This document shows positions 10,169 to 45,399 of a stretch of DNA of 64,000 bases, in pieces. The position numbers and the translations under genes are program-made. The notes beneath the pieces are model-generated. The model did no database searches. It saw nothing but the letters and a program-made list of their open reading frames with translations, and was not told where the DNA came from. Origin of the DNA: Marsupella aquatica (taxonomy: Eukaryota; Plantae; Marchantiophyta); contig OZ316894.1 of NCBI GenBank assembly GCA_973895155.1, forward strand, positions 16,848,216-16,912,215, read 5' to 3'. Numbering within the stretch: position 1 is the first letter of the stretch; every line of letters starts with the position of its first letter.

Positions 10169-10365
10169 GGGTTTTTCTTAACATTTGTTGTAATTATTGA
10201 TATATGCTCTTCTTCACTCCTAGTAATAGGCTACGGCTTAGTTCTGGTTTGCTCTAGTTAGAGAGGGGAAACCATGTTGGTTTTCGTCCAGAATTTCCCG
10301 CTGAGAAAATAATATAGGTTAGCAGTATTACCCTCCGGCCCCTAGACCAGAGTCAAGGGGGAGAT

Positions 10366-10708
10366 TGTTAGGTATTTACTCAAGGTCTAGGGTTACGACA
10401 TGTAACCGTAGTTAGGCTAAGCATAGTCGGAGACGTGGTTAGGTTAACTAGGATGCACACTATATGCCAAGCGGTGTTTGCTTGGATAAGTGGAACTTAG
10501 GCTCATTATTATGGAGCCACTTGAGAGATAAAGAGAGCTTACACTATGGAGATTTGGTATGGCCGACGGGCTTAGAGTTCAGTAAAGCTCTCTTGTGTGT
10601 TCCCATGGACGTAGCCTTGAGGAGGTGAACCACGTATCTCTTGTGTTGACTACTTGCGCGTTGGATGTGTCATGTGCTTACCATTGCGATTATCGTCTAT
10701 GCTCAACA
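10366..10708 (+). repeat. 3' LTR of copia element
   Basis: Preceded by the PPT. About 17 substitutions versus the 5' LTR by manual count. Confidence 0.95.
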
Positions 10709-12451: not shown

Positions 12452-13856
12452 AATGGGAGCTAGTGAAACAAACCATGAACTATCAATAGATGTGGCTGAA
12501 ATTGTTGTTGCGCAGCCAAGGCCAAAGTTATGGCTTCTGATTGACTCCAACAATGGAGAGCCAAATTGAAGAGGCAGATCGAGAACACATGCAAAATGGA
12601 ATGAGGAGGAGCAGGCATGGTTGGAGAGTGTTGTGATGTCGGGGCCCTTCAATAATAATGAACAGGGGACCAAGAAACAAGGTGGATCAAGGAAAGGGAA
12701 GCACAGGAACTTTGATCGGGACACAGCACAAGGGCATGAGCAAATTTGGAAGGACTACTTTGCTGAATCTCCAGTGTTCACAAACAGACATTTCAGGAGA
12801 AGGTATAGAATGAGAAGACCTCTATTTTGGCAAATTCATGATGTTATTAAAGAGGAAGATCCCTACTTCATCCAGAAACGAGATGCTGCAGGAATTCTTG
12901 GGTTGTCATTGATCCAAAAATTGACTGTTGCTTTGAGAATGCTTTCATTGGGTGTTTCTATTGATGCCCTTGATAAATGTGAGAATTGGGGCGAGCACCA
13001 CCATGAAGTGCTTCAAGAGATTTTGTTATGCTCTTAGAGACCACTTTGAGGAGGAGTACCTTAGACAGCCCACGAAGGAGGACATGAACAAATAATTATA
13101 AATCAACCAACAATGTGGTTTCCCTGGTATGTTTGCATCTTTGGACTGTATGCACTATGAGTGGAAGAACTGCCCAGTGGTTTGACAGGGTCTGTTTACC
13201 AACAAGGACGAGGAGAAATCAATTGTTCTAGAAGCCATAGCAGATCAATCCCTCTAGACTTGGCATGCCTACTTTGGCTTACCTGGTGCACATAATGACC
13301 TAAATGTCCTGGATCGTTCACCTTTGGTAAACAATTTTTTGAAGAGTGAAGCTGATGAGGTTGGGTTTACTGTCAATGACCGACACTATGGCCGCTACTA
13401 TTTGCTTGTTGATGGCATCTATCCAGATTGGTCTATCTTTATTAAAACTATTCAATTGCCACAAGGCAATGCTAGAAAGTGGTTTGCTAAATGCCAAGAA
13501 GGGGCCCAAAAGGATGTTGAGAGGGATTTTGGAGTGCTGCATCAGCGATTTGCAATTGTCAAAAACCCAGTTCAAATGCACTATCAACATGAAATCAAGG
13601 ACATTCTTCTAGCCTGTGTCATTCTACATAATATGATAGTGGAGGACGAGAGAGGTGAGCGATTGCCTGCTGATTGGGACTTCTTGGATAGAGCTAGAGC
13701 TCAAGCAGGAAGAGATCTTGGCAAGCACGAGTGGTCTGAATACTTGGCTGCTACACGAGGTATTGAGGATGCTGAAACTCTTTGAGAAATGACCTTGTAG
13801 CACACCTTTGGGCTCTCAAAGGACAAGGTCACTGTTTTGACTATGTGGGAAATTAG
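12452..13856 (+). pseudogene. Pong-like plant transposase (Plant_tran family)
   Basis: DYFAESPVF...FRRRYRMRRPLF, GFPGMFASLDCMHYEWKNCP, NDLNVLDRSP, YLLVDGIYPDW, KDVERDFGVL, ACVILHNMIVEDE and terminal DLVAHLW. Several stops and frameshifts; the start is approximate. Confidence 0.9.
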
Positions 13857-17362: not shown

Positions 17363-19510
17363 ACCATGTACCATTACAATACAGAACGAGTCCCTTTATA
17401 AACTTAAGAAAGTGAGAATCAATCTTGACCCTTCATCAAAATATTAACTTCTTCACACCATCAGATCTATCCATACACCCTTTCTAAAATAAGTTCCTGC
17501 CCAAACTACCCTTTAGCCTTCCCATACCTGTCACAATGAAATACTTAATTAGAAACTAATTCAATTTCATTCACATATAGATAATTTAGTAGTGGTTGTG
17601 AAGAAAAAAGGCCCTCGTTGTGGACTATTTTATGATAAATAATTGATTTATAGATTGAAGTGAAATAAACATAACGATTGAATTAAATGAGTAAAGTGTT
17701 ATTTATTTATAATTTTCCACAAAACTTAATTGAAATAATATTAAATTATTTTATGATTGTATTGGGCACATGGCAAAATTTGGTTGATCATCTAAAGTTA
17801 TTAGTGTTAAGTGCGATGATATAGGATTTGTATAGATGAATTTTGTTGCTTTGAAGAACACATCTATTTTTCAATCTTTCTACTGGAGATTCTATTTGTA
17901 ATTTTTCTTCTTGAGTTGAAGGTTTAAAGTAGTAACAACTCAGAATCAATTTTTTGACACCAAAACAGTGAGCATTATACAAAGATAAAGTGTTGTGCAA
18001 GTAAAAATTGATATTTTAAAACTCTCCATTCTAGTTAGGACAGTCCTTCCCAGCAAGTCCGATGATCACACTTGGGCATAATAGAAGGTGGGCAAGTGAG
18101 TGGGTCTTCATTAAAACGGGGTATAGAAATGGAAATAATACAGAAAAGTACAGTATGTCCAAGCACCAGATTCACAAGGATATAGATATACTGCCAAGTC
18201 AGTTACTCCATCAAAATGCACAGAATATTTTTAAACTTTGCACGTCAACTCTCTTTGGAGGGTAAACCAGGATTGACTCATTGTCTTCTCCCAACACATG
18301 ATGTTGTGTTCCAAAATTGAATTTTTTTTGTTTCCATGAGCAAAACTTATTTCATTCTGGCGCTGTGTTTTGATGACATTGTAATTTGAATACAATCCCA
18401 CAGGAAGAAGAAGAGAAATGTAGCAGCTGCAAGAAGAGTACAATTGGTTAAATTCTAGCTTATTTGGTATTACAAGGGAAAGCCAAGCTCTTTGGGTTGG
18501 TTGTGTAATTGTGGATATTAATTCCAGGAATTCAAGCCAAATTGGAAGCTAAGCATAAGCAGTGATGGATATATCAGTAATAGATCCACTACCCAAGACA
18601 ATATACTTTAGACTCTGGAAATAATTTGAATGATGGAAAACCTTAACTCTCTTTTTAATTATGTGAATTGCAACAATAAGGATTTCTGTCTTTGGAAGGA
18701 GATAATGCAGAACCAACAATCACAAATGATAAGGAGTAGGACAGCCTTTGACTAATTACTAGGTCCGAGGACCAAAACACACCTGAAATCGAGCAAAGAA
18801 AGAGCATAATAAGGAGCCCCCAAAGTTTAGTTCTCTTCTACCACAATACCAAACGTTTGTGTCCATCCTACTCCTAGCTAGCTTGCACTTCAAAAAAAAG
18901 GAAGAAAGGCCAACCTGGCAACTCCAGATTAGCACTTAAGAAGAGCAAAGACATGACTTTGTGGTAGCTCACTTGAGTAGAAACTGATAGGTCTTGGGTT
19001 CAACTATTGTAACTGACTTTTTCCTTTTCTATGGATCGAGTTTCATAGATTTCCCTTCAAACAAATAAAAAAGAATGAAAAAAAGAGCCCACTATGACAT
19101 TATCGCTGAGCCAGCTTGATGTTCTCATTCTTATTAGCCAGAATGTGAAGCTCAAATCTCACCTCCACGTCTCACTGAGCCAAACTCTTTTCTATCTAGC
19201 ATGGCATCCATGGAATTTACACAATTCCCACCCTGTCATTGTCAAATATCATAATTTGCAATCTTTTTTAGATAAATACTACAATGCCACCTTTTTTTAT
19301 TGTCATGGGTTAACTTAGAGCTGGTTATCGAGCAGAGACCTCAGCCCTAAGATTGTCACGTACATTGGATAATTGGATGGTTTCCATTGGCCTCAGATAA
19401 AGTTCAGACTACTGGTTTATTAGGGCAGGGTTTTGCCCTCCCTGCGGAGTCCACCCCCAACCTTGCCTCACTATTTCCCCAGTGCCCTCCTCCGCCCTCA
19501 AGGTAGGCAT

Positions 19511-19960
19511 CCCCCTGACCCCAGTGTGGACTTGTCTGACAAATAAGGGGTCTGGACCTCGACAAATGACATTAGTCACACCCGACCTGTCCTGGCCCCA
19601 ACCCCAACCCCCGGCCCCAGCTCACACCCCGCCCTGATCTGGCTCCGGCCTGGCCCGACCCGCCCACACCCCGCCCCAAACCTGACCAGCCCCGGCCCCC
19701 GCCTGTGCCGCCCCGCCCCGCCCCTGACCCCAAACCAGGGGGCCGGCTCACTAACCGGGGGAGTCCGGGACCGGACCGGGAGGGGGTCGGGAAAGTTTGG
19801 GACCGGGCCGGGAGAGGGTCAGGAAAGTTCGGGGCCGGCCGGGGAATATTGGAAAATATGCGACAAATGACCCCTTTTGGAGCCACAGCCGACAAATGAC
19901 GTCGGACACGACAACTTGTTCTGTCCGACAATACTACAACTTGTCCGTCAGTTCAAACGG
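19511..19960. mobile_element. Small non-autonomous element or end fragment related to the adjacent 12-kb element
   Basis: Begins CCCCCTG, has repeated GACAAATGA motifs and a C-rich then G-rich core. Positions ~19820-19870 are an inverted homologue of ~20144-20190. Confidence 0.5.
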
Positions 19961-20164
19961 CCCCTGGCGCACTGTCCTTCAAGGGTGATGATTTTCCTAC
20001 GTGAAGGAGAATTGTAGGCCATTTTTTCACCAAACCACAGGGTCACTCAGGGCACAGGACATCCTGCACCCGGTTTGATGTGACGGGCAACTTGCCGAGT
20101 TGCCCGGCACGTAAACTTATCATTTGCCGGCCTGAATTACCCTCATTTGACGCATATTCGCCGT

Positions 20165-21005
20165 TATTCCCCGGCCCGGCCCGAACTTCTCCCGGCCCGA
20201 CCCTAACTCTTCCCGGCCTCTTCCCGGACTCGGCCCAGCCCCTCCCCTACCTCTTGTCACCCGGACCCGGCCCCGACTTTACATCCCGGCCCGGCTCGGG
20301 TGAGGAGGCCTGGCCCGGGTGAAGCGAGGCCCTAGACGAGGGAGGCCCGGCCCGGGTGGAGGGAGGCTTGGATGGGGGAGGGAGGGATGCCCGGCCCGGG
20401 TGAAGGGAGGCCCGGGTGGAGGAGGGAGGGAGGCCCGGCCCGAGTGAAGGGAGGTCCGAGAGGAGGGTGGAGGGAGGCCCGGCCCGGGTGGAGGGAGGGC
20501 CCGGGTGGAGGAGGGAGGGAGGCCCGGCCCAGGTGAAGGGTGGCCCGGGAGGAGGGAGGCCCGGCCCGGGTGGAGGGAGGCCCGGGTGGAGCGAGGAGGG
20601 AGGCCCAGCCCGGGTGAAGGGAGGCCCAGGAGGAGGGAGGAGGGAGGCCCGGCCCGGGTGAAGGGAGGAGGGAGGCCCGGCCCGGGTGAAGGGAGGCCCG
20701 GCCCGGGTGAAGGGAGGCCCGGGAGGAGGGTGGAGGGAGGCCCAGCCCAGGTGAAGGATGGCCCGGGAGGAGGGAGGAGGGAGGCCCGGCCCGGGTGGAG
20801 GGAGGCCCGGGAGGAGGGAGGAGGGAGGAGAAGGGCCCGGCCCGGGTGGAGGGAGGCCCAGGTGGAGCGAGGAGGGAGGCCCAGGGGAGGGAGGAGGGAG
20901 GCCCGGGAGGAGGGAGGAGGGAGGCCCGGCCCGGGTGAAGGGAGGCCCGGGTGGAGGGAGGAGGGAGTCCGGGTGGAGGGAGGGAGGCTGGCGGCTCGGC
21001 CCGGG
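20165..21005 (+). repeat. GC-rich left subterminal repeat array (GGAGGCCCGGCCCGGGTG[AG]AGG units)
   Basis: C-rich tract, then many degenerate G-rich units, ending immediately before TTATAAAG. Confidence 0.9.
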
Positions 21006-21176
21006 TTATAAAGTTGTGGATAAACCCGATTGGGGTAAGGATATCTGCTAATTTTGGGGTGGTATGGATTTCTCGCTTATCTAGTATGTCGACCCCGCTA
21101 AATAAAGAACGTGTCTCCATTATAAATTGTATAAAACCTTGAGTTTTTTTCTTTAGACCAAAGGTAGAGCACTCTA

Positions 21177-23498
21177 TGTAAGGAGGGATGTGACGCCAAT
21201 GACATGGTCCTTATTTTGTAATCTGATTAAGTAGGTTGCTGTATGCAAGGAGTAGCTATTGATATTACATAACAATTAGCAAGATGGCAAGAATAAGGGC
21301 AATCATGGCGTTAAGAGTAGGGAAATAAAAACTATGTCGCGGGTGGTCGACGACCATATCTCTTTCAATATGTCACCAAATCCGGATCTGTAAAGGGCAT
21401 TGGAAAGATCTGGTCAAGGCGAGTAAAATCGATATAAAACACTTGGGAAATGGAGGTGTATTAAGAGAGATACGGCCTGATTAGTGTGACGGGTTAACTT
21501 ATGGCCGGAATTAGCAGATTCGGCTTCAGTTTTGGGTTAACCCAAGCTCGACCACGGCTTAGCTTATGTGAGCACGGCTTCAGCTTAGCTCAGGTAAGCA
21601 CGGCTTCAGCTTAGCTCAGGTGAGCACGGCTTCAGCTTAGCTCAGGTAAGCACGGCTTCAGCTTAGCTTAGGTCAGCACAGCTTCAGCTTAGGCTTAACC
21701 TAGGTTCGGATTAGATTGAACTCGGGTTAGCCTAAACTCGGGCTCAGGTTAGCATAGGTAAGCTCGGGTTCGGGCTCAGCTTAGGCTAGGTTAGCGGATA
21801 GCGGGTAGCGGCCTAACCCGAGACCACGGGTTAGCTCTACTCGGGTTAGATAGGATAGCTAGGTTAGCCGAACTCGGGTTAGCTATGTAACTCGGGTTAG
21901 CGCAGCAGTGAGTACCCCCCTCTCGGTTGCGGGGGCATAACTCTCTGTGTATTTGACCAAATCGGCTATAATTGACCTCGTTGGAAAGAGGAGCTCAAGC
22001 CGCTTCCAACGCTGCTATCCACGCAGCAAATGGTTGAATACAGAAATCGGGAGAGGAGGCGTAAGCTCGCGAAAACCATGGAGGAGGGCCAAATCCGAAG
22101 TACATAGCCAATTCGAGATAGAAATAAAGCTGCGAGTTAGGGTTCAGTAGTTAGAGATAGTGGCGGCTCTGTTAGGGCTGGGATGGGGCTCCAGCAGCGT
22201 AGTACCCAGCCATTTGGGCTCAATATGAGAGTATATAGAGCAGCCCCCCAGTAGAGATGGGGGGGGGACTTCAGTTGTGTGATCTCACTTAGACTGAGTA
22301 GCGGGGAGGAGCTCTGTGCAAGCAAGGCTGGACTTGGACGCTGCGTGTTGGGGAGAGCTTGGTTGTGCTATACTCAGGGAGTAATCAGCCAAGCTTCACA
22401 ACAACGGGTTGCTAGGTTTGCGAGCTGGATTGTGGCTCTTTCTAGTGGGCAGCACAACTGGGTTCTTTTCCCCCGATACAGAGCCTTGGTGATAGGTGAT
22501 GTATTGGTGATTGTAAACTGTGGGGAGGATTTCAATTCGATTTGCGGTGGGCACATTAGGGAGGCTGAGGTACTGATTAAGGGGCAGCAGGAGGAGCATT
22601 TACAGTTCAGTCTGGCAAGGCTACGTGACCCATGGGGAGTCCCGGCCTTTGTCTGGTGGAGAGCACTAAGGGATCTATGGCCAGAGCTGAGCTTGCAGGG
22701 CAAGCGTGAGGCCGGGCCTCATTGCAGTCTGGGGTAGATCGCCGTTAGGCCTGGTACCAGCTTTGAAGTCGAGTCAACTATGCATGCGTAACTTAACGTT
22801 CTGAATTGGAGGTGTGAGATCTGTATGTGCCCCCAAGAATGAAGTGCAGTGAAGGAGGTTGAGTTCAGGATTGAGCTTGCATGGCAAGCACGGGGCTTGC
22901 AGGGCAAGCACGTCACAATCTGGAGGAGACAGCCTTCGGCCCTAGTGTTCGGATCAAGTGTTCTCAGTGAACTATTGTGCACATCTTTGAATCTAATTGA
23001 GTTTTCCTCTCAGGCCTCATTTCTCTCATGGATGTGTGTGTGTGTGAGGCAATCTGAGTGTATGATGGAACTAGCAGCGCCACTGAGAGGTGTACCGGGT
23101 GCATTGAAGCGGGCTGGGTGAGGACTGTCATAGCTCTGATTGTTGAGAGTGGAATGGCAGAGTGGTGGGGCAATGGCTTAGAAGTCCCTAAGCCGGGAAT
23201 CAGTCAGGAGTCACTGGTTTATGGGTACATTCCGGCGGCGGAATAGAAACATACCTATGACAGTAAGCATATGTATAGACCTATGCGCACCGTAGCGCTA
23301 GGCCCTGTGTGTACGGGCCCGATATGAAGACCCCTTCTCACCAGAACTATCATGAGCGCAGATCTGATCCCCAACCTCGGTTCCTTGGGATTGAGCTTGG
23401 GTGATGTGTGATAGAGTCTTGCTATGATAGTCTGGTGTTAAGGGCATAAACTGGTGTTTATCGGCATTCACAACATCCCTTCGTGATCCTCAGGTACA
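21177..23498. mobile_element. Probable solo LTR or non-coding retroelement insertion inside the left arm of the large element
   Basis: ~2.3 kb non-coding block bounded by TGT (21177 or 21189) and ...GGTACA (23498), with internal tandem repeats and a TATA-like motif at ~22232. It has no counterpart in the right arm. The TSD is not resolved. Confidence 0.45.
21571..21692 (+). repeat. 26-bp minisatellite AGCACGGCTTCAGCTTAGCTCAGGT(A/G), ~4.5 copies
   Basis: Directly visible, followed by degenerate CTCGGGTTAG units to ~21900. Confidence 0.9.
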
Positions 23499-24035
23499 AG
23501 GAGATGGTTTTGGCACCCATAGTGACGTTTTTGGTGTTAAGACCCATGTCAATCGCGTGACAAAGGATAGAGAAGACTTTTGTGCGCGCGTGCTTGGAGG
23601 TTTTACTCGGCATGTGGTAATCCGCATAATAATTTTCTTGTTATCCCTTAACAATTTAGTGGTACTTGTGGGTATTGTGAAACAAATTTCGACAATGTTG
23701 ACATTCATGTACGCATGTTTGGAGCTAAGGCTTGACGTGTGATATTTTGCATGATTGTCACTAATTGTCTCATATATTTTCATTATATCAGCAAATGCTC
23801 ATTAAATTATAGATATCACATACGTCGAATAGGAATGTTAACAACCAAAAAACAAAAGAGAACCGCTGTGCGCATGTTTGGAGTTTGACTCGGTGTGTGA
23901 AATTTCACAGTAGTTTTTGTTCTCGTTTTATTGTTGTTACTTCAAAAGACTAACATATCATTGAAATTTTATTAAGTGACTATGTTTAGCGATGTATAAG
24001 AAGACACTTTGTGTGTAAAGTTCTTGTTTTTGATC

Positions 24036-26874
24036 ATGTCTTCCAAAGAAGATGAGTCGGGCAACTCATCAGCTCATTCTACTCCTGTTAGGCATGGTGG
24101 AAATCACAATCGAGATCGTAGTGCAAAATTTTCCCTAGTGTGGAAATATTTTGAACGATGTGATACGCCATCAGCATGTAATGATATTAATCGTATATAT
24201 CGAAGATGCAAATTTTGCAAGAAATATACAACGCATCATGCAACACGAGCAAAAGCACATTTGATGGGAAACATACACAAAGGAGATGTGCCACCTTGCA
24301 CAGGCTTGTATGGAGTTGTTGACTTAGATGACATCAATAGAGTGTACAATGTCATAAAGGTTGACCCATCCATAAAGTACAAACAAAGTGATGGAAGTCA
24401 TGTTGTGTTATCCATGAGAGGTTGTAGGTCATATAACCCATCTTCCAATTCGCAAGCATCAACTCAAGACTCAAATTTTGTTGATCTCGATGAGGATGGA
24501 AATATGAGTCATCAAAGTAGAGCATCAAATTTTGCAAACCCAATCATGGATGCTTATCAAATTCCAAATATAGCTCATTTGGATAAGCTGTGGGCTAAAG
24601 CTTTTTATTCAAGTGGTATTCCGTTCAATGTGTCGGAGAATCCCTTTTTCCGTGAAGCAGTCACAGAAACTTCAAAAGGGATTGTAAATGGATATTCTCT
24701 TCCGGGTATGCGAAATTTGCAAATGAAATTATTGGAAGAGGCTAGAGTTGATCTTACAAAGGACATGACAAAAACAATGAAGGAGGCGAAATCCTTTGGA
24801 TATTCCCTTTCATCTGATGGATGGGAAAATATCCGAAGGGAACCTTTGATGAATGTCATGTTGTTTAGTTCAAAAGGAGACTTCTTTTTGGATAGTTGGA
24901 ACGCTGCACAAGCCGACAAGGAAGATGGGAAGTATCTTGGTGACATGTGGTTAAAATACATAGATGACATTGGCGTCGATCACATCATATAAATTGTTAC
25001 CGATGGGGCGCCTGCAAATTGTGTAGCAGGTGAAGAGATAGTCATGAAAAAATATCCGCATGTGAAGTGGAGTTGGTGTGCTGTCCACGTGTTTAATTTG
25101 TTGCTAGAAGACATGTGTGGCCACAAGAATGTAGTGCTAGATGAGCAAAAAAAATCCATTCAAATTGATTTTTAAGCACTTGAGATGGATAGTTAAAGCA
25201 ATTACATCATCATAAAAGTTGTCTGCAATATTTGTGAGGAAATCTGGTTACAGGAAGTTGTTAAATCCAAATGCAACGAGATTTGCAACAAATTTTTTAA
25301 TGGCGCAGAGAACATTGGAGCTAAGAGGAGCTTTACAACAAATGGTCATTGATGATAAGTAGCAATCCTATCGTGATCGACTGCCAGTTCGACCAAAGTC
25401 ATAGGGGCATATGACGAGGGCAAAGGCAGACGAACTTAAATCGTGGATACAACAAGATACATTTTGGGCTCAAGTAAAATCTACAGTCACTTTTTTCCTT
25501 CCGTTGGTGAAGATGTTGCGGGAATTCGATGGAGTTTCACCATAGTCTCCTTGGCTATATTGGAGCTTGAAAAAAGGAATAGCTAAACTGAAGGGGTGTA
25601 CATTAGTAACGGATTACTTAAAACCAAAGATAATGAAAGTGTATATGGATCGATGAAAATCACTTACTACTGATTTCATGTTAGCAACAGCATATCTGAA
25701 TCCTCAATTTTTCTTCGATGAAGATGCGGCAGGAGATGCAAAACTATATAGAGGCTTCAATGACTACGTTCATAGATATGCAAAATACAAGGTGAAGGCA
25801 GGAATCAACCATGATCAAGATGTGACGACACTTATTTTTGACATCCAAATGCAGGCATTTGAGGCTCAATTTTTTTTGTCAAATTCATCGGTTGCAATCA
25901 GAGAAGCACAATCCAATATTGGGAAATTAAGTTCGGGAGAGTCGTGGCATTTGTATGGAGCTGATTACGCGGAGCTAAGATTGTTGGCCAGAAGAATCAC
26001 GCATCAACAAATGTGTGCATCTTCATGCAAACAAAATTGGAGTTCGTATGACTTTATCCATTCAAAAAGCCGTAACAGGTTGACCAATGATCGGGCAAAG
26101 GACTTGGTTTTTGTATTCACAAATTCGAGGGTGCAAAAAGGGCTCACGAAGGTGAGAAACCCTCATACGTCTATGTACAGACGATATGATGAAAAAACAA
26201 CAACAAATGATGGCCCGAGGCCTACTTCCATAGAAGGAGGTCACAATGAACAACATGGTGTACCATGTGCGGCTCTTGGAGAGGATGACGTGGAGGATTT
26301 TGATACAATTGATGACGCAGATGAGGCTTTGCAAGGATTGTCACTACACAATGATGGTGACATGTTGACTCGTATTCCACCAGATACTGAAATAAGTGAT
26401 GTCGGAGAATGGGAAGATGAAATAGATTTGATGATGTTTCTTACAATTGATGAGTCTCAAATTCAGGATGACGAGGACTACTCATTTGATGCAAACTTTG
26501 TAATGCCTTCCCAACCAAACCCATCATTCACATACCCAACATTGAATCTACAAAATGATGTCCAAGCAAGTACTTCCTACTTATTTCAACGACGAGATGC
26601 TGTGTCAGAGCTCTGTCCAGAGAGAACAACACCCAACTTTTTTGTGCAACCTGATGATGCACAGTGGGGACAACATGCTTCTCCAACACCAAATATGTAT
26701 GAAAGGCAGAACATGACAAATCCATACACATCAAACATACATGCTCGTGTTGATGCATTTCAAGAATATCATAACGCAGATCCGGTCCAATGGATGACAA
26801 GACAATATCAATTCGATCGACAGTTGCAAGAAAATGAGAACAATAACACAAGGCACTTTTCCTCACAACCTTGA
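24036..26874 (+). pseudogene. hAT-superfamily transposase: BED zinc finger + DUF659 + hAT C-terminal dimerisation domain + acidic tail
   Basis: VWKYF...CKFCKK...RAKAHL (BED); AFYSSGIPFNV.ENPFF, LSSDGW, IVTDG...N, WCAVHVFNLLLED (DUF659); NATRFATNF, YLNPQF, ASSCKQNWSSYDFIHSKSRNRL...KDLVFVFTN. Premature stops and a frameshift are present, and the expected CERNWS glutamate reads K. Confidence 0.92.
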
Positions 26875-27142
26875 CTTCTGTTTAGGTATTATATTTAGGC
26901 TAGTACTATACGACAAACTGTGATATACTATACCGGATTGTGCATGTCCTATGCAAGGAATACTATGTAATAAAATCTACGATACTAAACATTGTGTATG
27001 CAATCTAGTCAAATTGGTTCTTCCTATCTTGCATTTTTGCTTTCACTTCCGCCAGTTGCTGACGACGGCGATGGCGACAAATAGATCGCTGCATGTTATG
27101 CTCATCTATTATTGGTCGATTAGCCATTGCATATTCCTTCCA

Positions 27143-28933
27143 CTATTGGAATCTACCACTGAATAACAAATTGTCAAAGTCACCATCTGACAAGTTGTAT
27201 TCATTGACTGTGTAGTTGTCAATGGGCCTTGAATCAATGTGTGCCATTGCAATACTCTCTTGAGTCATATCTTTACTGTCTTGCTGTGTCTCCATTGGTG
27301 GCATTTGTTTCAACAAACCCGGTTGCTCATACTCTCGTTCATGAAATGGTTTCCGGCACCAATATTTCCGGCTCTTCTTCATCCACCTAAACAAGCAAGC
27401 ATGATGCCATAAGTGACCGCATGTTCCCAAAATGGAAACAGATTTGGGACCCCATGGATACAAGCACCAAGTATATCTTCCATCCTTTTCTCGAACAAAT
27501 TGGGCTATACTCTCATTGCTCTTCCACTTGTCAAAAAATTTCTCAACATCTTCAGGATCAACTTCCACATCCGAAAAAAGGTTAGATTATCCCGTAGGAT
27601 CAATCATGTGCAAATTCATATAATTGTAGTTGGTGCATCTTGATTTTTCATTGTCTGACTGACCATCCACCTCAGCAGTGTTCATTTGCTCAATCTCCTC
27701 TTGCAGATTGCTTATGATCACATCTTGTGATGCAACTTGATTCTTCAAATCAAGAATGACTCTATTTGCTTCTTGAACTTGCATCATTTGACTACATTGA
27801 CCATCCTTTTGGGCTAGTTGTTTCTTGAGCATTGCGATCTCCTCCATCTTGTCGTACAGTTGCACCTTGTATTCCTTGACCTCTGAAGTAGTTGCAGTTT
27901 GAATGGGTATTTTTTCCATTGCTTTCATCTTCATAATATTATCTTGCAACTTTGACTTGTAGTAGTCAATGCTGCTAGCTTCACAAAGCTCAAGACAAAA
28001 TTTTGTGCGAAGATTGTTCTCGATCAATTGACCAATCTCTGTGCCCAAACTCTTGCACACAATCTCCATGCTCAGTGATTCTTTCTTTGCATCCAAAACA
28101 CCAGTGAACTTTCCTGGTACATTGTTACTTGTAGAGGCAGCTAGAATGTTTGATTTTTTTTCCACATGTTTTGTTGCACCATAACTTTCGGATTTAGTGA
28201 AGAGTCGTTCCAATGCAGTCGGCTTATCTTTATGATGCACATGAATGTCTTGCGTATCATGTATCTTTCTTTTGGACCCTTTGTTTGTTGCTTGTGCCGA
28301 GATATCTTTCGCAATAGAACTCTTCTTAATTCCCTGTAAATCCAAGACAGACGTATGCACATTGTGAGCCATCTTGCCCTCTTCCGTTTCCCAACGGTAA
28401 TCCACCTTCCACTTAAGGATGAATTCAGCAATTAGGAGTCTGAGAAATGGCGGATAAACCAAACTCGTTTTGCCCTACGCCTTTTTTGGAGCATACTCTC
28501 GAAATTGTTGTTGCCAATGCTTCCCAATCTCCACATGTGTGACCTTCGACATGGTGTACTTCTCTTGCAACCAATACTTTATGGACCACAAAGTCTCATC
28601 ATCAAAAATGATTTTCATAAATTTGTGAAACTCCACACGCGGCATCAATATCTCCAATTCTTTGGCATTGATGGGCCAATCATTGTGAGGAGGTTTCACA
28701 TTTGGCATCGTGATATTCTATTCAACATCTTTGGTGTCCTCTTCCATTTTGGTTTTCCTTTGCTTTGCATGGTTGCTACTCATTCCCATGTCCTCATCCG
28801 TGGGTTGAGAATCTATGGGTTGAGAATCTATTGCAATGTACTCTTCCATAGCATAGTCGTGTAAATCCTAAGCATACCCGTCCTTTGTACAAGGTTTCTC
28901 CTCTTCATCGGATTCCAATTCCCATTTTCCCAT
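27143..28933 (-). pseudogene. Coiled-coil + C-terminal RING-H2-like protein (putative E3 ligase), transposon cargo
   Basis: ORFs 28475-28708, 27587-28462 and 27143-27568 share one frame from ATG 28933 (~596 codons, 4 in-frame stops). There is a heptad-rich region, then YTWC...TCGHLWHHACLFRWMKKSRKYWCRKPF. Confidence 0.75.
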
Positions 28934-29117
28934 ACTTGCAAGATCTACAATGACATAAACATATTTAGCATTCATTCAACATTTAACCATCAAGGTAAAA
29001 ATCGTAACAATACACAATGAAGCAAAGGAGAAAAATATTTAAAGTCATAGGACATGATTAAATAGATGATTATTCATGTCATATTTCATTGTCATTCATG
29101 ATGAAACTATGTCATCC

Positions 29118-30775
29118 CTAATCTCTTAGATAACGACTATTGTGCTGAACTAATCTACAATCCTGGAATGTCCTCATCATTCTCAAACTCCAATGAACAC
29201 AATCCATTCTTTTGGTGACATTAGTGGCCATCATGTCACGTATCATAATCTCCAATTTAGGGCCATGCTCTCTAGCATTCTAACCCCTATTCAAATAACG
29301 TGTCATTGGGGTCATTCCATCCCAATTTTCTGTAAGTAATGTCTCAAAGACATTGCCCAAAGCATATATGTCAGTTGCCTGACTGTACTCTACTGGATCG
29401 GAATGAACTAGCTCAGGCGCCAATTGTGGATATTTTTTTTGATACGCAACAGCTTTCTCTGCAGGGGTGGGCCACATTCGATTCAGTGGTAATGTGCATT
29501 GTGATTTGTGTTTGGACAACCCAAAATCACATATTCCTACATAAACTCTGATTGCCAAATCATCCTCGTGATCAAAGTGAAGAAGAATGTTCCCAAAATG
29601 AAGATCACAATGGAATCGGTCGTGTGCATGCAAATACTGCAACGTCTCCAATAAAGCCATAGCAATCCCCAAACGATGTTCCAAAAAGAGTTTCTTTTCG
29701 GATATGAATGTCACATCCACTTCCGAAGTGGATTGTGTCTTCCCCTTGCTCTTACTCCATTTCCCACACTTATCTATAAAGCTTCCCAAGTCACCTCCAT
29801 TGTAATGATCATAGATAAGTTTGGGTGGATCTTCGATGGTCATTGCCAAGGCCCCAATGATTCCTTTGTGATTCAACCCTCCCATTAGCACTTCTTGTAA
29901 AGTATCTGTTCGTCTTTTGTGTCGGTCTCCATCCTTGAATCGTTTTGCAACTAGTGTTGCATTTTGAGGAATCAATGGGCAATCCAATATATGACATATG
30001 AACACATGTCCTTGGATACCGCTTCCAATGCGATGCAAATTTTGTACTTGCTCCCTCCTCAAGAAATGAATACTCCTGACCATGGAAAGAACTCGTGATG
30101 GACGCGTTCCTCTATCTGCAACTTCCACGCCAATCTCTCCAAACTGCACGACCTTGCTCGCATATTTGACATTACTCTCCGATTTGGCCATTGCTAACTC
30201 TTTGCTCCATTTTGCTAGCAAATCTCTTCTATGTGTGTATAGCCCAGGAACTCCAAGCATGACGGCCCCAGCCTCATCCAAATTGGTTTCCAACTTGTCC
30301 CAAAGATTTATCGCAAAGTTCAACGCCAGATGTTCAACAAATCCACCTGGCTTCTCAAAATTCCTTATTAAGGCAGCAATTTCATCTCGGGTCATGTCTT
30401 CTTCTTTCTCCACAGTCTCATGCATGCAACGCCCCATGTCATTTAAAGGTTTTTGTAACCCTCTGCTCCATGCATGGCATACTTCCTCTGAAAGCCATCC
30501 TGCTGATACTGTGCTGGCAAAGTGTAGGGATATAGAATTTTTTTCTAAATCACAACTAACACATGTTGCCTTCTTTCTTTCAATGCAGCACCAATTGCTC
30601 CTCCTCTGTGTTTCCATTTCCCTAAGGTTTTGCCATGTTTACAGATTTCTAAGGTTTTGTGAGCATTCCTTAGGGCACTGAGGGCATGAGGATCTGGTTG
30701 GTACCCTTCGTTTAGCACGGTCTTCATTGCCTCAAAAAGTCTCATATACTCTACACTCACATGTGCAGCGGCCAT
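29118..30775 (-). pseudogene. Intronless protein kinase (ePK fold) with an unrecognised N-terminal region, transposon cargo
   Basis: IGSGIQGHV, VAKRF, QEV, LNHKGII, YLHAHDRFHCDLHFGNILL, ICDFGLSK, APEL, TDIYALG. Reading through TAG at 29280 gives ...MMATNVTKR (subdomain XI) and a stop at 29118. A frameshift joins it to ATG 30775. Confidence 0.9.
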
Positions 30776-31569
30776 GTTCTCAAGTAACCACAACAAGTTG
30801 TAGGATAAAGAATAGGTGCTTACGGAGTGAGTTGGCTGCTTGCCGAGGGTACAGATGATGCAAGTACAATGAAGCTGGATCAAGAATCCTGAAATGTCAT
30901 TTTACACTTTGTGTTGGTACCAATAATACCCAAGCAATATAATCTAGATATTTGTTCTATTTTTTATTCTTTTATTTAGTACTTTGAAAGTAACAATGAT
31001 GAAGGGGAAAGACAACTATGTGAAATACCACACGCCGAGCCGAAACTCCAAGCATGCGCACAAAAGTGATCTTTTCCTTCAAGTTGTTACATTCCTACTC
31101 CAATCTATGTGAAACCTATAGTTTAGATATCATTTGTAAATGTTGTGAAAATATTTACAAGGAATTGAGATATCCATGCAGAGTACTACACGTCGAGTCG
31201 AAACTCCAAGCATGCGTACATGAAAATCTCTATCCTAGCAAATTCTCCACTCAACTCACAAATGACACTAAACTGTTAAGGCGATATTCGGTTCTCTCAT
31301 ACGAAATACCACACGCCAAGCATAAGCTCCAAGCATGCGCATACGTGAGAACCATAATACCCCTCCAAATTAATACTAAATATGAAAGTCATATATGCAA
31401 TGCAAAACATAGCAAAAAAAACACTCAAAAACAAGGCAACTAAACTCAAAAGTAAACAAAACATGAGGAAAAGCAAGAAAAACTCACCAAAGGCCTTTCC
31501 TGCATTAGAGCCAAGCCAAAGTTAGAGAAAAAGAGAGAGAATGAGAGAAAGTGAGGAGAGCTCCTCACT

Positions 31570-32030
31570 TTATAGGCCCGGTCCCGGTCTGCCCCCCCCC
31601 TCCCCCACCTCGCGAGCCGTCTTCCGGGCGGCCGAGCCCGACCCCCCCGGCGGCTGCCTCCCTCTTTGCGTTTTACTCTCCTTAGGGTCCGAGGGCCGGG
31701 GGCTTTTGGGTCCCGGGCGGGGGGGGGGGGGGGGCTTTAGGGTCCAGGCCGGGGGCTTTAGGGTCCGGGGTGGGGGGGGGTCTTTAGGGTCCGGGCCGGG
31801 AGGGTGCAGGGTCTGGGGCCGGGGGCTTTAGGATCCGGGCCGGGAGGGTGAGGGGTCCGGGGCCGGGGGCTTTAGGGTCCGGGGCGGGAGGGGTTTAGGG
31901 TCCGGGCCGGGCCGGGGGGGTTTAGGGTCCGGGGCCGGGAGGGAATAAGGTCCGAAGCCGGGTCAGGACCGGGACTTCTACTCAGGCCGGGACCGGAGGA
32001 TGTACTCGGGCCGGGACCGGATGATGCCGA
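31570..32030 (+). repeat. GC-rich right subterminal array containing TTTAGGG heptamers
   Basis: Repeated GGCCGGGGGCTTTAGGGTCC-like units, with a minus-strand TATA (CTATAAAG) at ~31568-31575. Confidence 0.88.
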
Positions 32031-32385
32031 CTGGGAGAGTCCGGGTGTCGGTTTGCCGGTTGACGGCCTTAAAACGGCCTATTTGCCGGGCAAGTCCAAA
32101 CCGGGATCCTACACCTCTGTGGTCCCCCTCACTGGAGAATCTGACTATTATTATCACACCCTTGAAGCAGAGTGCGCCAGGGGGGAATCCCAAAACTACA
32201 AAATATCTGAAATATCAAATTTACTGCAATCCAGCTCTTAGGAAATGTGGTCTATGGGGGTTTCAAAGACCAACCTTGTGGTCCATGGGGGCTTGAAACT
32301 CGGATTCTGAGAGAAGATATGATTACTGTAATTTAGAGAGGATTGCAGATTTGCAGATCGACAGTTCGTGTGTCGAGAATTGGAT

Positions 32386-35300
32386 ATGGAGGAGAGGGGA
32401 CTGCAGCGCGTAGCTCAGCTGGCGAGGCACATCACGAGGAGCGATGGCACTAGCAAGTACGAGCGCTTGCATCGAATTGACTCCACGGATCCTGTGGTGT
32501 GGAGACATTGCTCCGTGGGAGCTGCGCAATTTGAGGAGGTCATATATGAGAAGGGCGAAGGGATCGCCAAGGTTGGGATGTGTAGTTTAATGCCAGCTTA
32601 TTGTAGCACGACTTCGTTGCTCGACTGCTCTTTACTGTTTCCGAGGTTGAATACTGATGTGGTTCTCTTCCGCAGATGACCATCAATAGGCCAGAAAGTC
32701 GGAATGCTTTCACACCCAAGACGGTGGAGGAGTTGAGTCTTGCTTTTAACGATGCTCGCGACGATAGCGAAATTGGTGTTGTGATTCTCACAGGCAAGGT
32801 GCTAAGCGAGCTTGTAATATTTTGTCTATCCGCGTGTCAAGTGTTGTTGGATAGGAAATGCTGGTGCAATGTGTAAAATTATTTCACTGGTGATACCTTT
32901 TCATGCAAGTGTTTGTAATGGCCAGTAAACTAACCATTGGGTAAGGCAACAGGGGAAGAATTACAAATCACAACCGTATTGCAATATAGTCGAATCTTTT
33001 CGTTTCAAACACATTGATCAGACCAGGAGGAAGCGGGTATGGTGCAACTTAGCCTGTGAGAAGTGAGCCATTGATGCAATATGTCTCTATCATTCTTCCT
33101 GGAGTTTACTTAGTCACAAATCTGTCATGATGTTTTCAGGGAAGCAATGCATTTTGCAGCGGAGGTGATGTAGGAGTTCGTTCAAATATGGGTTACGTTG
33201 GAGGTGACAAAATTCCTAGATTGAATGTTTTGGACTTGCAGGTCAGTGTGTTTTGTTGTCGCCGATAACTGTGTCATAACTTCTCTCTTATTGACTTGGA
33301 CTGTAAGTGGCTGCGAGTGCTCTCCTTGCCAACACTCGCACGATTCATATTCAAGCTGGGATTGTTGGAAGAGACGTGTCCCAGCGACAGAGAAATTGGT
33401 CCTTAGACGAACGTTTGCACGCAACCACAGTGCAAGACGGCCAGGATGTAAAGAGCGTCTCCTTATATTCAGATTTCGTTGTTCGTTTTTGCAGATTCAA
33501 ATTCGAAGGTTGCCCAAACCAGTGATTGCCATGGTAAGTTCTTGACACCCTCTTGTGGTTATAGAACATGCTCTTCAGCTTATGTGGCCAAGAACCTAAC
33601 TAGTCAAATCCATGGTACCGAGTTTTTCGTGAGTTGAATGCACTGGATTGATCATAACTTTCCACCGAACTTGCTGGCAGAACACCATCAAGAGGCCCTT
33701 GCGCGTGGCAGATTTATTTTGTGGAAAATCGCACTGATCTGGAAGTGTGATCCTGTTCTTCTATTCCAGGTTTCAGGCTATGCTGTTGGAGGTGGGCATG
33801 TTCTACAGCTGGTGTGTGATCTCACTATTGCGGCAGACAATGCTGTGTTTGGACAAAGTGGACCGAAGGTAGTGTACTCTGTCTCTCGGGCATCTGCAAT
33901 GTATTACCATCGGTGATTTCCTTTGCTTTGGCGTAGTAGATATTAACTTGGAACTTAACAATATCTGATGTCACCATATTATTCCTTATTCTTCAAGGCT
34001 GTACAAGGGAGACAATTGCTGATAGAGCTTGGCTCTGGACTTATCAGGTCGGGAGTTTTGATGCCGGATTTGGAGTCAGTACGATGTCTCACATGGTGAA
34101 TAGACGCTTTCCTTATGACACCTGAACTAGGATTGGAAGTCTGGGTGTCCAACAGAACTGTTGTAAAAGTGAAGGTGCATTTTTTGTCAGTGTTTTACGG
34201 TTGCCGATTCGCTTTCTATCTTTCCTTCGGAGTAATCAATAGGGATGCTTTGTTTTGCCTTGCTAGGTCATCTTTATATCATGGTAGTGGATAGTAGGAC
34301 CATGCATACACCTCAACGCTGTAACGACTTTAACGGCTGTGGGTTTACAGATCGGTGCGAGAAAAACCAGGGAAATGTGGTTTTTGGCACGTTTGTATGA
34401 TGCTCAGGAGGCGTTGAGTATGGGTCTTGTGAACACCGTTGTACCTGTAAGTTGCAAACTTCTGCTCTGTAGCCGGGTTTGGCTATAATCTGGGACCTCA
34501 GTCTATTTCAGTAATCAGTCGGGTTCGTTTGACCAATTGAGGCGCATTGGTGCCTGTAACGAGCTGTTTTATTAATTTGTGTGAAGTAAGTATTGCTATC
34601 ATAAGGTATGAATTTTTGTTTATAATGATGACTGGTATACCAGTGCAAAACATTACGGCTGTAAAACTAAATCTCTCTGGCAGACTCTACAATCTATGAG
34701 GATGTCTTTAGCAGAGTTTATTAACATGATTGATAATCCCTATTGGAGATTGAGTCAACCATCACAAACTACGGTACAGGTCGTTAAGCTTTTGATGGCT
34801 CATTTTCTCCCCACGCCTAACAGCATTTGGTTAGCAACATTCTGGGACAGGGTCCAAGTCTTTTCCTTCATCGCTGTAGTTAGGTATTCTGCTAACTTTA
34901 TTGGTGACGATGTTTTCTCTTGGCAGCTTGATAAGTTGGAACAAGAGACGGTGAAGTGGTGTCGCGAAATACTATCAAATAGCCCCACTGCGATCCGTGT
35001 CCTCAAGGCCGCCATCAATGCCACGGAGGGAAGCAGTGACCTGCAAGTAAGTAGTGCTTTCTGAATATATGGTGAACTTGTAGTTTTGGTTGATGTATTG
35101 GTTAGGTAGTGGAGGTCGCAACATGACTTCAAATGTCTAGTCTTTCTTGCTTGAAGTTGATCATTGGCAACCTATCGCGTTGGCAATGTCAGCTATTGCC
35201 TCCCTTCAATGTAAAAAATCCAACTTCCTACAACTAACTTGCATGTGTCAAGATCGGGCAGTTTTGTTCACTAAACTGTCTGCTGGTTCGTTGTTGATGC

Positions 35301-38400: not shown

Positions 38401-39664
38401 CTAAGCAAATGCAGACTCAGATATTTGCCATGCTCCCCAACCACTTCACTAGTATCTATTCTATCTAATCTGAAGCTTTGGTGATGTATCCAAGGAAAGG
38501 AATTTCCCTTCAAATAATGTGATATTGTGAAATATGATCATCTAAGATTTCTTTAACTTGAAGGTTGTAATACAAGTCAAGTCACTAGTAAGGTGACTCA
38601 GAGGGTTGAGTGTGCAATAGTTTATTCTCTGGACTGACTGCAAACTATGGTGTACATGGCATGGTTTCAGTTTTTTTCTTGGATCCAATTTTCTCATATG
38701 CTAGTGGCCCCTTAAACCTTTATCTATGGTATCTTTAAGTTTGTCTGCCAAATTACAGGCCTCAACATATCGTATTCTCCCACATGTCCATTTTTATGAT
38801 TAGCTAAAGATGATGAGGGCATGCTGCCAGCATTAGGATATATCTTAACTAATAAAATGCAATGCAATCTAGTGAGGCCTCTAGACTGTAATTCTCAATT
38901 GGAAAAAAACTGAAAAGCGAGGGTGGACCAAAAAGAGGAATGGGAGAAAACATTAACAAAACTGACATTGACTCTATATTATGACAAAACTAAGAGTGAT
39001 TCTCAATAAAGACAGAATAGAAGTGAGGGTGAAAAAATAGGGATGGAGGCAAAGATGAACAAGAGCATCTTTATGCTACAATATTTTTTTTGGTCTTCAT
39101 CTCTATTTACATTCAAAGAACGGGTAATCGGGCTAGTTTGTAGAATTTCAAACATGCATTTGTAGCCAATCATACCACTCCATATATAGATTGGGCGGAC
39201 AAATTGAGGTGCGGCCTCCTAATCTATGGCAATTAAACAACCTAAAAGTATGGTAAAGTTTGTACATACGCCTCCTACCGTAAACATGTTGAAGTACTGC
39301 CAACTTTTGTATTTCATAGCAAGATAGGCTCACCATTATCATAATCATTAAACGGGGTGTGGTCCAATATGATGCTGCTTGTTGGGTGTTATGCTCTGGT
39401 TAATTTGGTTAGGTATTTTATAGATATCACATGCGAGGTTGACAGGAATTGAAATATTTAGTTTAGGGTTTATTTTCTAAATTTTAATGTATATTTGACT
39501 TTATAGAAAGTAGATAATTAAAATAATAATTCATTTTGTAAGATATGTACTCATAAGCTAGAGTTACTCTATAACCATAATTAGTCTAATCATAATTAGA
39601 TATTTGATCAAGATTAGACATGCTGGAGCCTTAATATATAGACAAGCAGAAGTTAGCTAGCAAA

Positions 39665-39756
39665 ATAGATGAATGCTACTTAGTATATACACTAGGTGGA
39701 GTTCATTTGTGAATGAATCTTCCTGATTGTGTATATACTAAGTAGCATATATCTAT
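39665..39756. repeat. ~92-nt fold-back inverted repeat
   Basis: TGCTACTTAGTATATACAC pairs perfectly with GTGTATATACTAAGTAGCA, with further inner and outer pairing. Confidence 0.85.
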
Positions 39757-39811: not shown

Positions 39812-40700
39812 TTGCATCGTCCCTAGTTTGTTTCATTTCCAACACCCTCCCTTGAGCAACACTCTCACTTCACAAGATATTCCTTGCATTGTTTCTAGTT
39901 TGGTTCATTTCCAACACCCTCCCTTGAGCCCTACACTCATTTTAAGAGGAGATTCTTAATCTTTGGCTCTGGTAACATGTTAGAAGTTTGAACAACATGG
40001 ACCAACCATGAATGTGAACCTATGACCTTGGCTTGAGTGTGGTTTATTTTCAACACTTGCTTCAAAAGAGATTCCTTGCATTGTCTCTAGTTTGGTTCAT
40101 TTCCAACACCCTCCCTTGAGCCCTACACTTGTTTGAAGAGGAGATTCTTAATCTTTGGCTCTGGTAACATGTTAGAAGTTTGAACAACATGGACCAACTA
40201 TGAATGTGAACCTATGACCTCGGCTTGAGTGTGGTTTATTTCCAACACTCTCGCTTCAAGAGAGATTCCTTGCATCGTCCCTAGTTTGGTTCATTTTTAG
40301 CACCCTCCCTTGAGCAACTTTCTTGCTTCAAAAGAGATACCTTGCATTGTCTCTAGTTTGGTTCATTTCCAACACCCTCCCTTAAGCCACACTCATTTGA
40401 AGAGGAGATTCTTAACCTTTAGCTCTGGTAACATGTTGGAAGTTTGAACAACATGGACCAACTAAGAATTGAACCTATGATCTAGTGTGTGCATGATAGT
40501 GCTCTACCGCTGAACTCGAGGCCCTTCATGCCTGCAATGCCCCTGGTTTGAGCGTGGTTTATTTGGAACAGCGAGGAACAGGTTGCATTGTGTGCATTGT
40601 CTCTGCTTTGAGTATGGTTTATTTCCAACAGAGAGGAACAGGTTGCAGTGTGTGCAGTGTCTCTGCTTTGAGTGTGGTTTGTTTCCGACAGAGAGGAACA
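39812..40700 (-). mobile_element. Tandem array of TRIM-like miniature LTR retroelements
   Basis: On the minus strand: PPT AAGGGAGGG + TGTTGGAA repeated, and PBS-like TGTTACCAGAGC three times (39965-39977, 40157-40169, 40421-40433) abutting LTR ends. Internal regions are ~60 bp; 60-bp tandem units follow at 40535-40700. Confidence 0.7.
40454..40524 (-). other. tRNA-like (pol III A/B box) sequence inside the TRIM-like LTR
   Basis: GGGCCTCGAGTTCAGCGGTAGAGC...GGTTCAATTCTTAGTTGGTCCA, 71 nt, with a D-arm/A box, T-loop/B box and partial acceptor stem. The anticodon arm is poor. Confidence 0.65.
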
Positions 40701-41541
40701 CGTTTCTGCCGAAGAATGAAGTTTTAGCATCAGGAGTTGTCTCACATTGTATACCAAGCTGACTGAGAATAATTTGTTTAACTTCACTCTGGTTCTACGT
40801 TGTCTCATCAACCTTGGTAGATTTTGACATCGTTCAGCTGAGATTTGCTCTAAAGTAGTAGCCAAGGTCCTGAAGAGTGAATCGCGATGCATATTGAAAA
40901 AGCAAAATGAAGTTCATCTCTGTGCTCTTTTGATGGTACCATCATCGTTTTGTACATATATATCAAATCATCAATCTCAACAGTACTACAGTTCACAATT
41001 ACTTCAATGCAAAGTGCTTTGACTTGCTGATGATTGCGTAGCAGAGTTTATTTTCCCTCCTACCAAGGAGGACAACCCAATCTCTTAGCTGGTCCATGGA
41101 ATGGAAGTAGGTCTTTGCTGCCTCCGAACGTCAGCTACGTTTCTACAGTTCGCAATGTTGTTTGATTTTCTACTTGTGATCATAATTGAAACGAAGTCTT
41201 CTGGCAATGTGTCTAAGCCCCTTGTGGTATGAATCTAGAATTCGTACGATTACCATTCTAGCTTCATTCAGCCGAGTCTTTCCTAGCTGCAATAAAAACC
41301 TCTACTTCTGTTACATACTAGAAGCAATGCCCCACTACTTTGACCAGAGATGCTCCTACGTTCAACCAGGTAAGCATATTTTCGGTCAGTTTCCGAACCG
41401 GCAACTTTCATTTCCAGAATTGCTGAAGAGGTCAATTTCGTCAAAACCAGTGACTAGTTGGTACTCAATTAAGCTTGAGTGGCTTTTTTATATTTTCAGA
41501 AACCATGGACTAATCTATCGCCGGATGGTAGCATGTTTAGT

Positions 41542-44591: not shown

Positions 44592-45065
44592 CTACTCTTC
44601 GCTCGGTTGGAGACACTTCTCGACCATTTCCACAAGATGGGGGTTCTCTAGAGCAGCTGCCACCCTCTCCTTGTCATTCAGCTGCTTGTTGACGGCTGGC
44701 TCCGAGGAATGCGATCCTGGAGCAACCCGGATGTCGACCTTGAAGCGCTGCGGCAGGGAGCGTAGCAATTTGACCCTTATACACAGCCCGATCACAGTTG
44801 CCATGCTGCAATGTTGGACAGTCGGCGTGAACGTGACCGTAACATGACTCCTCTTGTCGTCGACGTCGATGGAATCCTCAGAGACCACATTCAGCTGCTC
44901 CAGCGAGTATGGATGCTCTGGATCTGTGATGTCCCTCACGTGCTCGAAGATTTCCTCCGCGTCAAATCTATCAACACTGCTCTCATCGGCGTTGTCCACT
45001 CTGGTTGGCCGCACTTTGGTTTGGTGGATCACAGGATTCGCATTGATCAAGGCCGCAGGTGCCAT
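44592..45065 (-). CDS. AE7: MIP18/CIA2/FAM96B family cytosolic Fe-S assembly protein (AE7-like), single exon, 157 aa
   Basis: [65 protein letters not shown]. Confidence 0.95.
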
Positions 45066-45399
45066 CTTCGCTCGCTTGTGGAAAGCAATTCGTAGCTTTT
45101 TCCCAACCCACTACTCTTACAATCTCCAAATCCTTCAAAATCACTCACCCACTTTACTCACCCACTTTCCCTCCAGTGAGTTGATTCCAAGGTAGTACCG
45201 GAAATACTCGGCCGCAAGAGTACTGAAGAATTGTGAACTTCTGGGATGTCCAATACAGCGTTTTTTGTTTAGTGGCGGATATTTGCCCGGAAACGACAGG
45301 TAGAGTAGCCTAGGCATATGAGAATGGGGATAAGCAACTAGCCTAACAATTTTGGGCAGAAGGAAAACTAGCTGTACGATTTTTGATACAAGGTTTATA

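Follow-up and report, generated by a model that had tools for sequence, protein, structure and literature searches.

Mirrored arms and putative kinase and RING cargo genes in a decayed DUF659-type hAT transposon of the liverwort Marsupella aquatica

Transposases of the DUF659-type hAT group have been described (PMC3985635), and several related or functionally similar transposons are known to carry cargo. DUF659 hATs of 9.5–9.9 kb in Pseudocercospora fijiensis carry a histone H3 gene (Dhillon 2019, PMC6710886), whereas in fungi hAT7 elements carry TET/JBP genes and IS3EU elements an alpha-kinase, with cargo exchanged between superfamilies (Kojima 2025, PMC12730594). VANDAL elements encode the anti-silencing helper VANC (PMC12730594), and in fishes AACRNL, a protein-modifying enzyme for which relief from silencing has been proposed, lies between hAT or mariner ends (PMC12957317). 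Here we analysed a stretch of 64,000 nucleotides from the liverwort Marsupella aquatica (assembly GCA_973895155.1, contig OZ316894.1, forward strand, 16,848,216 to 16,912,215; hereafter, the window) and compared with these systems a unit at positions 19961–32183 of the window, which holds the remnants of a DUF659-type transposase gene, a protein kinase gene and a gene for a RING-type protein. With somewhat better than even confidence, we read it as a decayed DUF659-type hAT whose mirrored arms drove the transposase on one side and the kinase and RING pair on the other, the pair having modified host proteins and kept the element active.

With the described DUF659 hATs, the unit shares an RNase-H-like core, a dimerisation region, the D-D-CxxH-E arrangement in intact relatives and short terminal inverted repeats (TIRs); it differs from them in two extra protein genes, in mirrored, modular arms of 1.4–2 kb and in ends of 27 nt, compared with 8–23 bp in grapevine hATs (PMC2528002). 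The P. fijiensis elements resemble it in transposase domain, in size and in having an internal cargo gene, but their cargo is a captured housekeeping gene that is inactivated in all copies, whereas the matches examined here included no parent gene and the kinase shows the mark of purifying selection. Fungal TET/JBP transposons share with it a hAT-borne accessory enzyme and a cargo common to several superfamilies, and IS3EU a kinase gene placed opposite the transposase. However, the TET/JBP cargo is a DNA dioxygenase, the IS3EU enzyme is an alpha-kinase rather than tyrosine kinase-like (TKL) as here, and the accessible part of the account mentions no RING partner for either (PMC12730594). AACRNL is an animal ADP-ribosyltransferase of Crinkler origin, and the part of the account consulted describes no autonomous DUF659 transposase in the same package (PMC12957317). 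In MuDR, convergent genes are driven from two arms, and this layout, together with the VANDAL helper against silencing, offers a likeness in working; the transposase there is of Mutator type, and the helper binds DNA and is neither a kinase nor an E3 ubiquitin ligase. Our literature search, which lay outside Repbase, Dfam and most subscription papers, found no plant hAT carrying a kinase or a RING gene. A preliminary description of the locus had called the element giant and set it against hATs that encode only a transposase; both contrasts were overstated, because hATs of 9.5–9.9 kb with histone H3 cargo, as well as hATs with TET/JBP cargo, have been published.

The unit spans 12,223 bp from end to end. 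Inverted-repeat alignment defined its left TIR (19961–19987, plus strand), which begins CCCCTGG, and its right TIR (32157–32183, minus strand); the two are 27 nt each and 93% complementary, with an alignment score of 49 against a best of 25 among 200 shuffles. Between them, the transposase gene (24036–26874, plus strand) converges on the RING gene (27005–28933, minus strand) and the kinase gene (29118–30775, minus strand), so that the stop codons of the transposase and RING genes face each other across 130 bp, while the RING gene begins 185 bp past the kinase stop. In alignments, the window copies of all three genes are collinear with intact relatives, and coding introns are therefore absent from all of them. 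In these respects the locus is as first described, namely one TIR-bounded unit of about 12.2 kb in which tandem kinase and RING genes without coding introns face the transposase. The secondary insertion that had been noticed in the unit is likewise present: it is long terminal repeat (LTR)-like, measures about 2.0–2.5 kb, occupies part of the left arm (21016–23519, unstranded; start at 21016 or 21487, end at 23476 or 23519) and has no counterpart in the right arm. As candidate ends for this insertion we considered a 5-bp duplication with TG..CA termini at 21487–23519 and rejected it as being at chance level (two such matches against about three expected).

The proposal that the three genes form one element found its support in the arms, whose symmetry is an addition to the first reading. 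Running inwards, both arms follow the same plan, with the TIR, C-rich and then G-rich CCCGG repeats, TATAAAG and a 370-bp segment. On the left, the CCCGG repeats have periods of 21–23 and 44 bp (20065–21005, plus strand) and are followed by an inward-facing TATA-like box (TATAAA, 21007–21012, plus strand), a putative promoter that is mirrored in the right arm (alignment score of the region 35, best shuffle 28). On the right, subterminal GC-rich repeats (31575–32130, minus strand) precede an inward TATA-like box (31569–31574, minus strand), and the sequence then continues with a GT donor and a T-rich stretch, from which we infer a 5′ leader intron. The 370-bp segment lies upstream of the transposase in the left arm (23586–23953, plus strand) and upstream of the kinase in the right arm (30976–31340, minus strand). 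Its two copies, inverted to each other, are 70% identical (E 3e-30; score 263 against a best shuffle of 45), and a motif of about 30 bp recurs in each of them, at 23588, 23713 and 23872 on the left and at 31338, 31215 and 31057 on the right. These six are all the occurrences of the motif in the window, and their spacing is 125/159 bp in the left copy and 123/158 bp in the right one. Because the inverted repeat precedes both genes, we assign transposase and kinase to one element, and since the repeats have diverged to 70% identity yet kept the spacing of the motif, the layout appears to be old and maintained. As for the RING gene, an AG acceptor stands 11 nt ahead of its ATG, and splicing from the leader of the right arm may therefore give access to it. 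We conclude with considerable confidence that transposase, kinase and RING genes moved together as a single unit.

The three genes have also decayed in a similar way, as had been proposed. The transposase gene has six stops and one frameshift (near 25150), the kinase gene two stops and one frameshift (near 30460), and the RING gene five stops; lesion rates are even across the three (chi-square P 0.87), in a test that rests on 15 lesions and has little power, which takes weight from the case for a single unit. At columns that are invariant among relatives, the losses are 39 of 352 in the transposase, 10 of 128 in the kinase and 21 of 156 in the RING protein. The preliminary description had further argued that the stops arose through C>T/G>A changes. 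Taken alone this argument is empty, because every stop codon is one such step from CAA, CAG, CGA or TGG; what does stand is that relatives carry Q or W at 8 of the 13 stop positions. TAG makes up nine of the 13 stops. Of the 59 single-base changes at invariant columns, 26 can be explained as C>T/G>A, against 14% under uniform change, but we do not claim methylation-driven decay, since this null ignores ordinary transition bias.

On sequence grounds, the transposase pseudogene (about 945 codons) belongs to the hAT superfamily, DUF659 type. Of the BED-DUF659-hATC architecture first assigned to it, DUF659 is firm (Pfam E 2e-27), the hATC region is weak in the window copy (Dimer_Tnp_hAT E 0.0025, short of the cut-off), and the BED-like part is an N-terminal pattern recognised by eye (W-x-Y-F, C-x2-C, H-x-L), for which Pfam returned zf-U1 at E 0.016 and no zf-BED. 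Both DUF659 and Dimer_Tnp_hAT exceed the cut-off in all three intact relatives. The relative P0033 displays the D-D-E triad and the CxxH (SSDGW, VTDGA, WCAAH and CERNW), and the catalytic E, which is kept in eight of nine relatives, is K in the window copy. PDB sequence matches were confined to Hermes, at E ~0.2, and the protein ends in a long, acidic, low-complexity tail. Seven transposase relatives were recovered among 7,997 candidates; a cluster at ≥ 90% identity comprises two contigs of the liverwort Calypogeia fissa.

The kinase pseudogene (about 552 codons) encodes a helical N-terminal region and a TKL-like kinase domain (Pkinase E 2e-15), and the open frame lacks the true start, which is found further upstream, across the frameshift. 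The G-loop, the VAIK lysine, the alphaC glutamate, HxD...N, DFG and APE are found in the window copy and in near-full relatives, and the catalytic loop reads HCDLHxxN; all 11 near-full relatives have the G-loop and DFG/DWG, and 10 of these 11 have the catalytic lysine motif. A structural model with a predicted local distance difference test (pLDDT) score of 80 gave Roco4, LIMK and IRAK4 as best folds (TKL/TK), and profile matches likewise pointed to Roco4, IRAK4 and LIMK. The ratio of nonsynonymous to synonymous substitutions (dN/dS), for which a value below 1 had been predicted, was about 0.12 in two of the three pairs compared and dS was saturated in the third, values that indicate past purifying selection on the kinase family.

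We recovered 12 kinase relatives among 5,872 candidates, and a profile search of 1.84 billion representatives yielded 18 kinase matches at E ≤ 1e-30, beyond which came remoter kinases of 440–525 amino acids with related motifs and then a Gigaspora multi-kinase protein. The sole named species among the recovered relatives is C. fissa, whose eight kinase entries represent seven loci on seven contigs, with one of the eight being full length. They include a cluster at ≥ 90% identity across four contigs and fall into at least two separate clades in a quick tree of 27 rows, several of them fragments. Copies that are dispersed, mostly broken and spread over at least two clades form the pattern of a transposon family and not of a host gene. 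A single-copy host kinase, which would have undone the original proposal, is ruled out by these at least seven dispersed loci, and the kinase family is very likely borne by transposons. We also weighed a Pack-element origin, in which ordinary kinase and RING genes of the host were captured by a hAT and then decayed as passengers. hATs do take up host sequence (PMC2528002; PMC6710886), but here both genes are full length and without coding introns, none of the ten profile-search matches examined by name is a conventional named plant kinase that could represent a host parent, the kinase and RING relatives recovered likewise include no conventional named plant parent, and the relatives, dispersed and mostly fragmentary as they are, remain constrained at the protein level across 45–75% identity; we regard such a capture as highly improbable. 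The remoter unnamed kinases (P0068, P0071, P0075, P0078, P0085, P0095, P0098 and P0099; mostly 440–525 amino acids) carry YxxWNGG and HNDL motifs, and those examined sit on short Logan, JGI or ENA contigs. They are possibly further transposon-borne clans.

The RING pseudogene encodes a 642-amino-acid protein with a conserved helical N-terminal domain, a coiled coil and a RING-H2 variant, in which two zinc-binding cysteines have become Y. zf-RING_2 was detected at E 0.0014 in the window copy and at 6e-6, barely under the cut-off, in an intact relative, and all eight zinc ligands are present in the six relatives checked. The domain has weak matches to the RINGs of Hrd1 and RNF165 (best E 6e-4), a fold search with the model of the protein returned generic coiled coils only (best Z 5.8), and five relatives were recovered among 3,360 candidates.

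Outside the window, the kinase also occurs next to a different gene. One of two stretches confirmed by a metagenome scan, L002 (5,822 bp), carries an intact kinase followed in tandem by a DUF6729 gene (L002:2527–5821; Pfam E 2e-11). Two copies of the ~30-bp arm motif precede the L002 kinase, the nearer one 273 bp from the ATG, compared with 282 bp in the window. The DUF6729 gene has DDE/DxxH-like motifs, the candidate arrangement being D, D (+76), DxxH (+20), E (+136) and four Cys, and an AG acceptor stands 2 nt before its likely ATG. In the Dada superfamily, the spacings are 68 and 176, a DxxH follows the second D, the N-terminus has a CCCC finger, small-RNA genes are the target and TIRs are lacking (PMC3706591). 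The motifs of the DUF6729 gene are compatible with Dada, at spacings of +76/+136 against 68/176 and with the element ends lying beyond the L002 contig. The protein had no detectable similarity to the window hAT transposase (hhalign probability 0.1%) and no PDB sequence match, and our literature search, with the scope given above, found no mention of DUF6729. Judging from its motifs, the gene likely encodes a transposase. Since the same kinase with the same upstream motif adjoins this unrelated gene, the kinase itself is likely to move between transposon groups, for which a shared arm repeat would provide a simple route. The termini of the window element bear a likeness to the U6 small nuclear RNA target used by Dada, which we judged to be a coincidence; Rfam gave nothing in the window, L001 (the other confirmed stretch) or L002.

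Several results weigh against the reading of a hAT with its own kinase and RING pair. One group concerns the ends. The duplication expected of a hAT was taken as 8 bp, or 5–7 bp in hAT5/6/7; no 8-bp duplication was found at this copy, the flanks of the 12-kb element show no in-register target-site duplication of ≥ 3 bp, and a GG dinucleotide is the only repeat on both flanks. The left flank, however, consists of an oppositely oriented member of the arm family with an internal deletion (19440–19960, minus strand, outer end approximate; BLASTN E 1e-10). Aligned with the left arm, the right part of this relative scores 119 (best shuffle 46); its left part gives a marginal 49 with the right arm (best shuffle 42), and about 110 terminal bp are gone precisely at the junction with the 12-kb element. 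Because the flank is a related element truncated at this point, the original left flank has probably been lost, and the arrangement suggests local hopping with an adjacent deletion. The alternative is that the ends belong to another superfamily, with the hAT gene as a nested passenger. Some EnSpm/CACTA-like elements have CCCC termini and a 2-bp duplication, and Ac-type hATs start with CAG or TAG, unlike the termini here; the GG on both flanks and the missing 8-bp duplication would also agree with such ends. But a 2-bp match is expected about once in 16, the true flank is probably gone, the window repeat and alignment scans found no second pair of ends inside the 12-kb unit, and transposase and kinase are both preceded by the arm repeat, which together make foreign ends very unlikely. 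About 200 bp past the right end, the right flank holds a spliced menB (DHNA-CoA synthase)-like host gene (32386–35060), one exon of which matches NCBIfam menB at E 4e-11.

The RING assignment has weaknesses of its own, in that the last ligand pair is C-x-C instead of the usual C-x2-C and the model of the protein is poor (pLDDT 49.5). A further group of adverse results concerns linkage elsewhere. The metagenome scan confirmed two of 157 stretches (L001 and L002, of 1.6 and 5.8 kb), and L002 holds neither a RING nor a hAT gene within its 5.8 kb. In favour of linkage, the longest Logan contig of the kinases P0008 and P0019 and of the RING relative P0016 is in each case 5,391 bp, a match by size only that suggests kinase–RING adjacency on one contig; against it, kinase relatives on contigs of 5,042 and 7,429 bp have no RING entry of matching size. 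In C. fissa, where annotated models among the matches listed were compared, none of the seven kinase loci is accession-adjacent to the three transposase entries or the one RING entry, and the closest such pair sharing a contig is separated by 317 accessions. Viral and prokaryote collections contained no relatives of the kinase, the transposase or the RING protein, and among the loci obtained there was no second full copy with all three genes.

Such a record could be produced by a one-off chimera, in which the kinase is mobile cargo but recombination between elements with a common arm repeat joined kinase, RING and hAT genes a single time, with no later spread as a family. In keeping with a chimera, a second copy was not seen, the L002 kinase is paired with a DUF6729 gene, accession adjacency is missing in C. 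fissa and the left junction is rearranged. Yet the arm repeats, at 70% identity and with their motif spacing kept, speak for a layout that is old and has been maintained, lesions occur at an even density across the genes, and the likely kinase–RING contig of 5,391 bp pairs the most distant RING relative (35%) with a distant kinase (47%); we therefore consider a one-off origin unlikely. On balance, we think it probable that the combination of kinase, RING and hAT recurs as a family.

If the element worked as we propose, its transposase would have bound both ends together with the subterminal CCCGG repeats, and the unit would have moved by cut and paste, the mode established for hAT elements. 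Each arm would have served as a promoter directed inwards, the two having a regulatory repeat in common, so that transposase and kinase were co-expressed; the RING gene would have been read either by splicing from the leader of the kinase promoter or from a separate short promoter. The kinase could then first have phosphorylated, and the RING protein afterwards ubiquitinated, a host factor involved in silencing or chromatin, allowing the element to escape silencing. That the putative kinase phosphorylates and the putative RING protein ubiquitinates a factor of this kind is plausible, at somewhat less than an even chance. The main functional rival is that the pair regulates its own transposase, through activation followed by ubiquitin-dependent removal. 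With promoter-like arms that mirror each other, the three genes would be expressed together, and the acidic low-complexity tail of the transposase could serve as a modification site. The kinase, however, also adjoins a gene dissimilar to the transposase (the DUF6729 gene of L002), and because of this its substrate is unlikely to be hAT-specific; for the same reason we prefer a host target, and consider self-regulation of the transposase improbable.

More speculatively, liverworts and probably other bryophytes may harbour a transposon-restricted, TKL-like kinase cassette that is driven by a repeat promoter of its own, frequently accompanied by a RING-H2 E3 gene and swapped between hAT and DUF6729 (Dada-like) elements, which would counter silencing by phosphorylating and then destroying its target and would be the plant counterpart of the fungal TET/JBP cargo. 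We advance this only tentatively. To our knowledge, few plant transposon-encoded counter-silencing proteins are known, and a selected kinase and E3 pair on mobile elements would, if true, constitute a new protein-modification route against silencing. It would also mean that part of the annotated kinase and RING gene families of liverworts is transposon cargo. Intact relatives exist for assays, among them C. fissa CAM6081650.1 and the L002 kinase.

The remainder of the window contains other mobile and host-like sequences. Two decayed PIF/Harbinger-type transposases (DDE_Tnp_4, Plant_tran) lie at 1369–2679 and 12570–13785 on the plus strand, and between them is a decayed Copia element (3919–10664), with 300-bp direct repeats that are 95% alike at 3919 and 10365 and with remnants of gag, protease and reverse transcriptase. 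Inverted repeat copies at 38908–39137 and 50433–50769, about 80–85% alike and 11.5 kb apart, enclose host-like sequence. Repeat arrays of 192 bp and 60 bp (39812–40712) adjoin a 28-bp hairpin at 39665–39756. An intronless open reading frame (ORF) on the minus strand at 44592–45110 has an FeS_assembly_P domain (E 8e-9) and is presumably MIP18/AE7-like, and a second intronless ORF, of 540 codons, at 55768–57390 encodes a two-repeat MYB protein.

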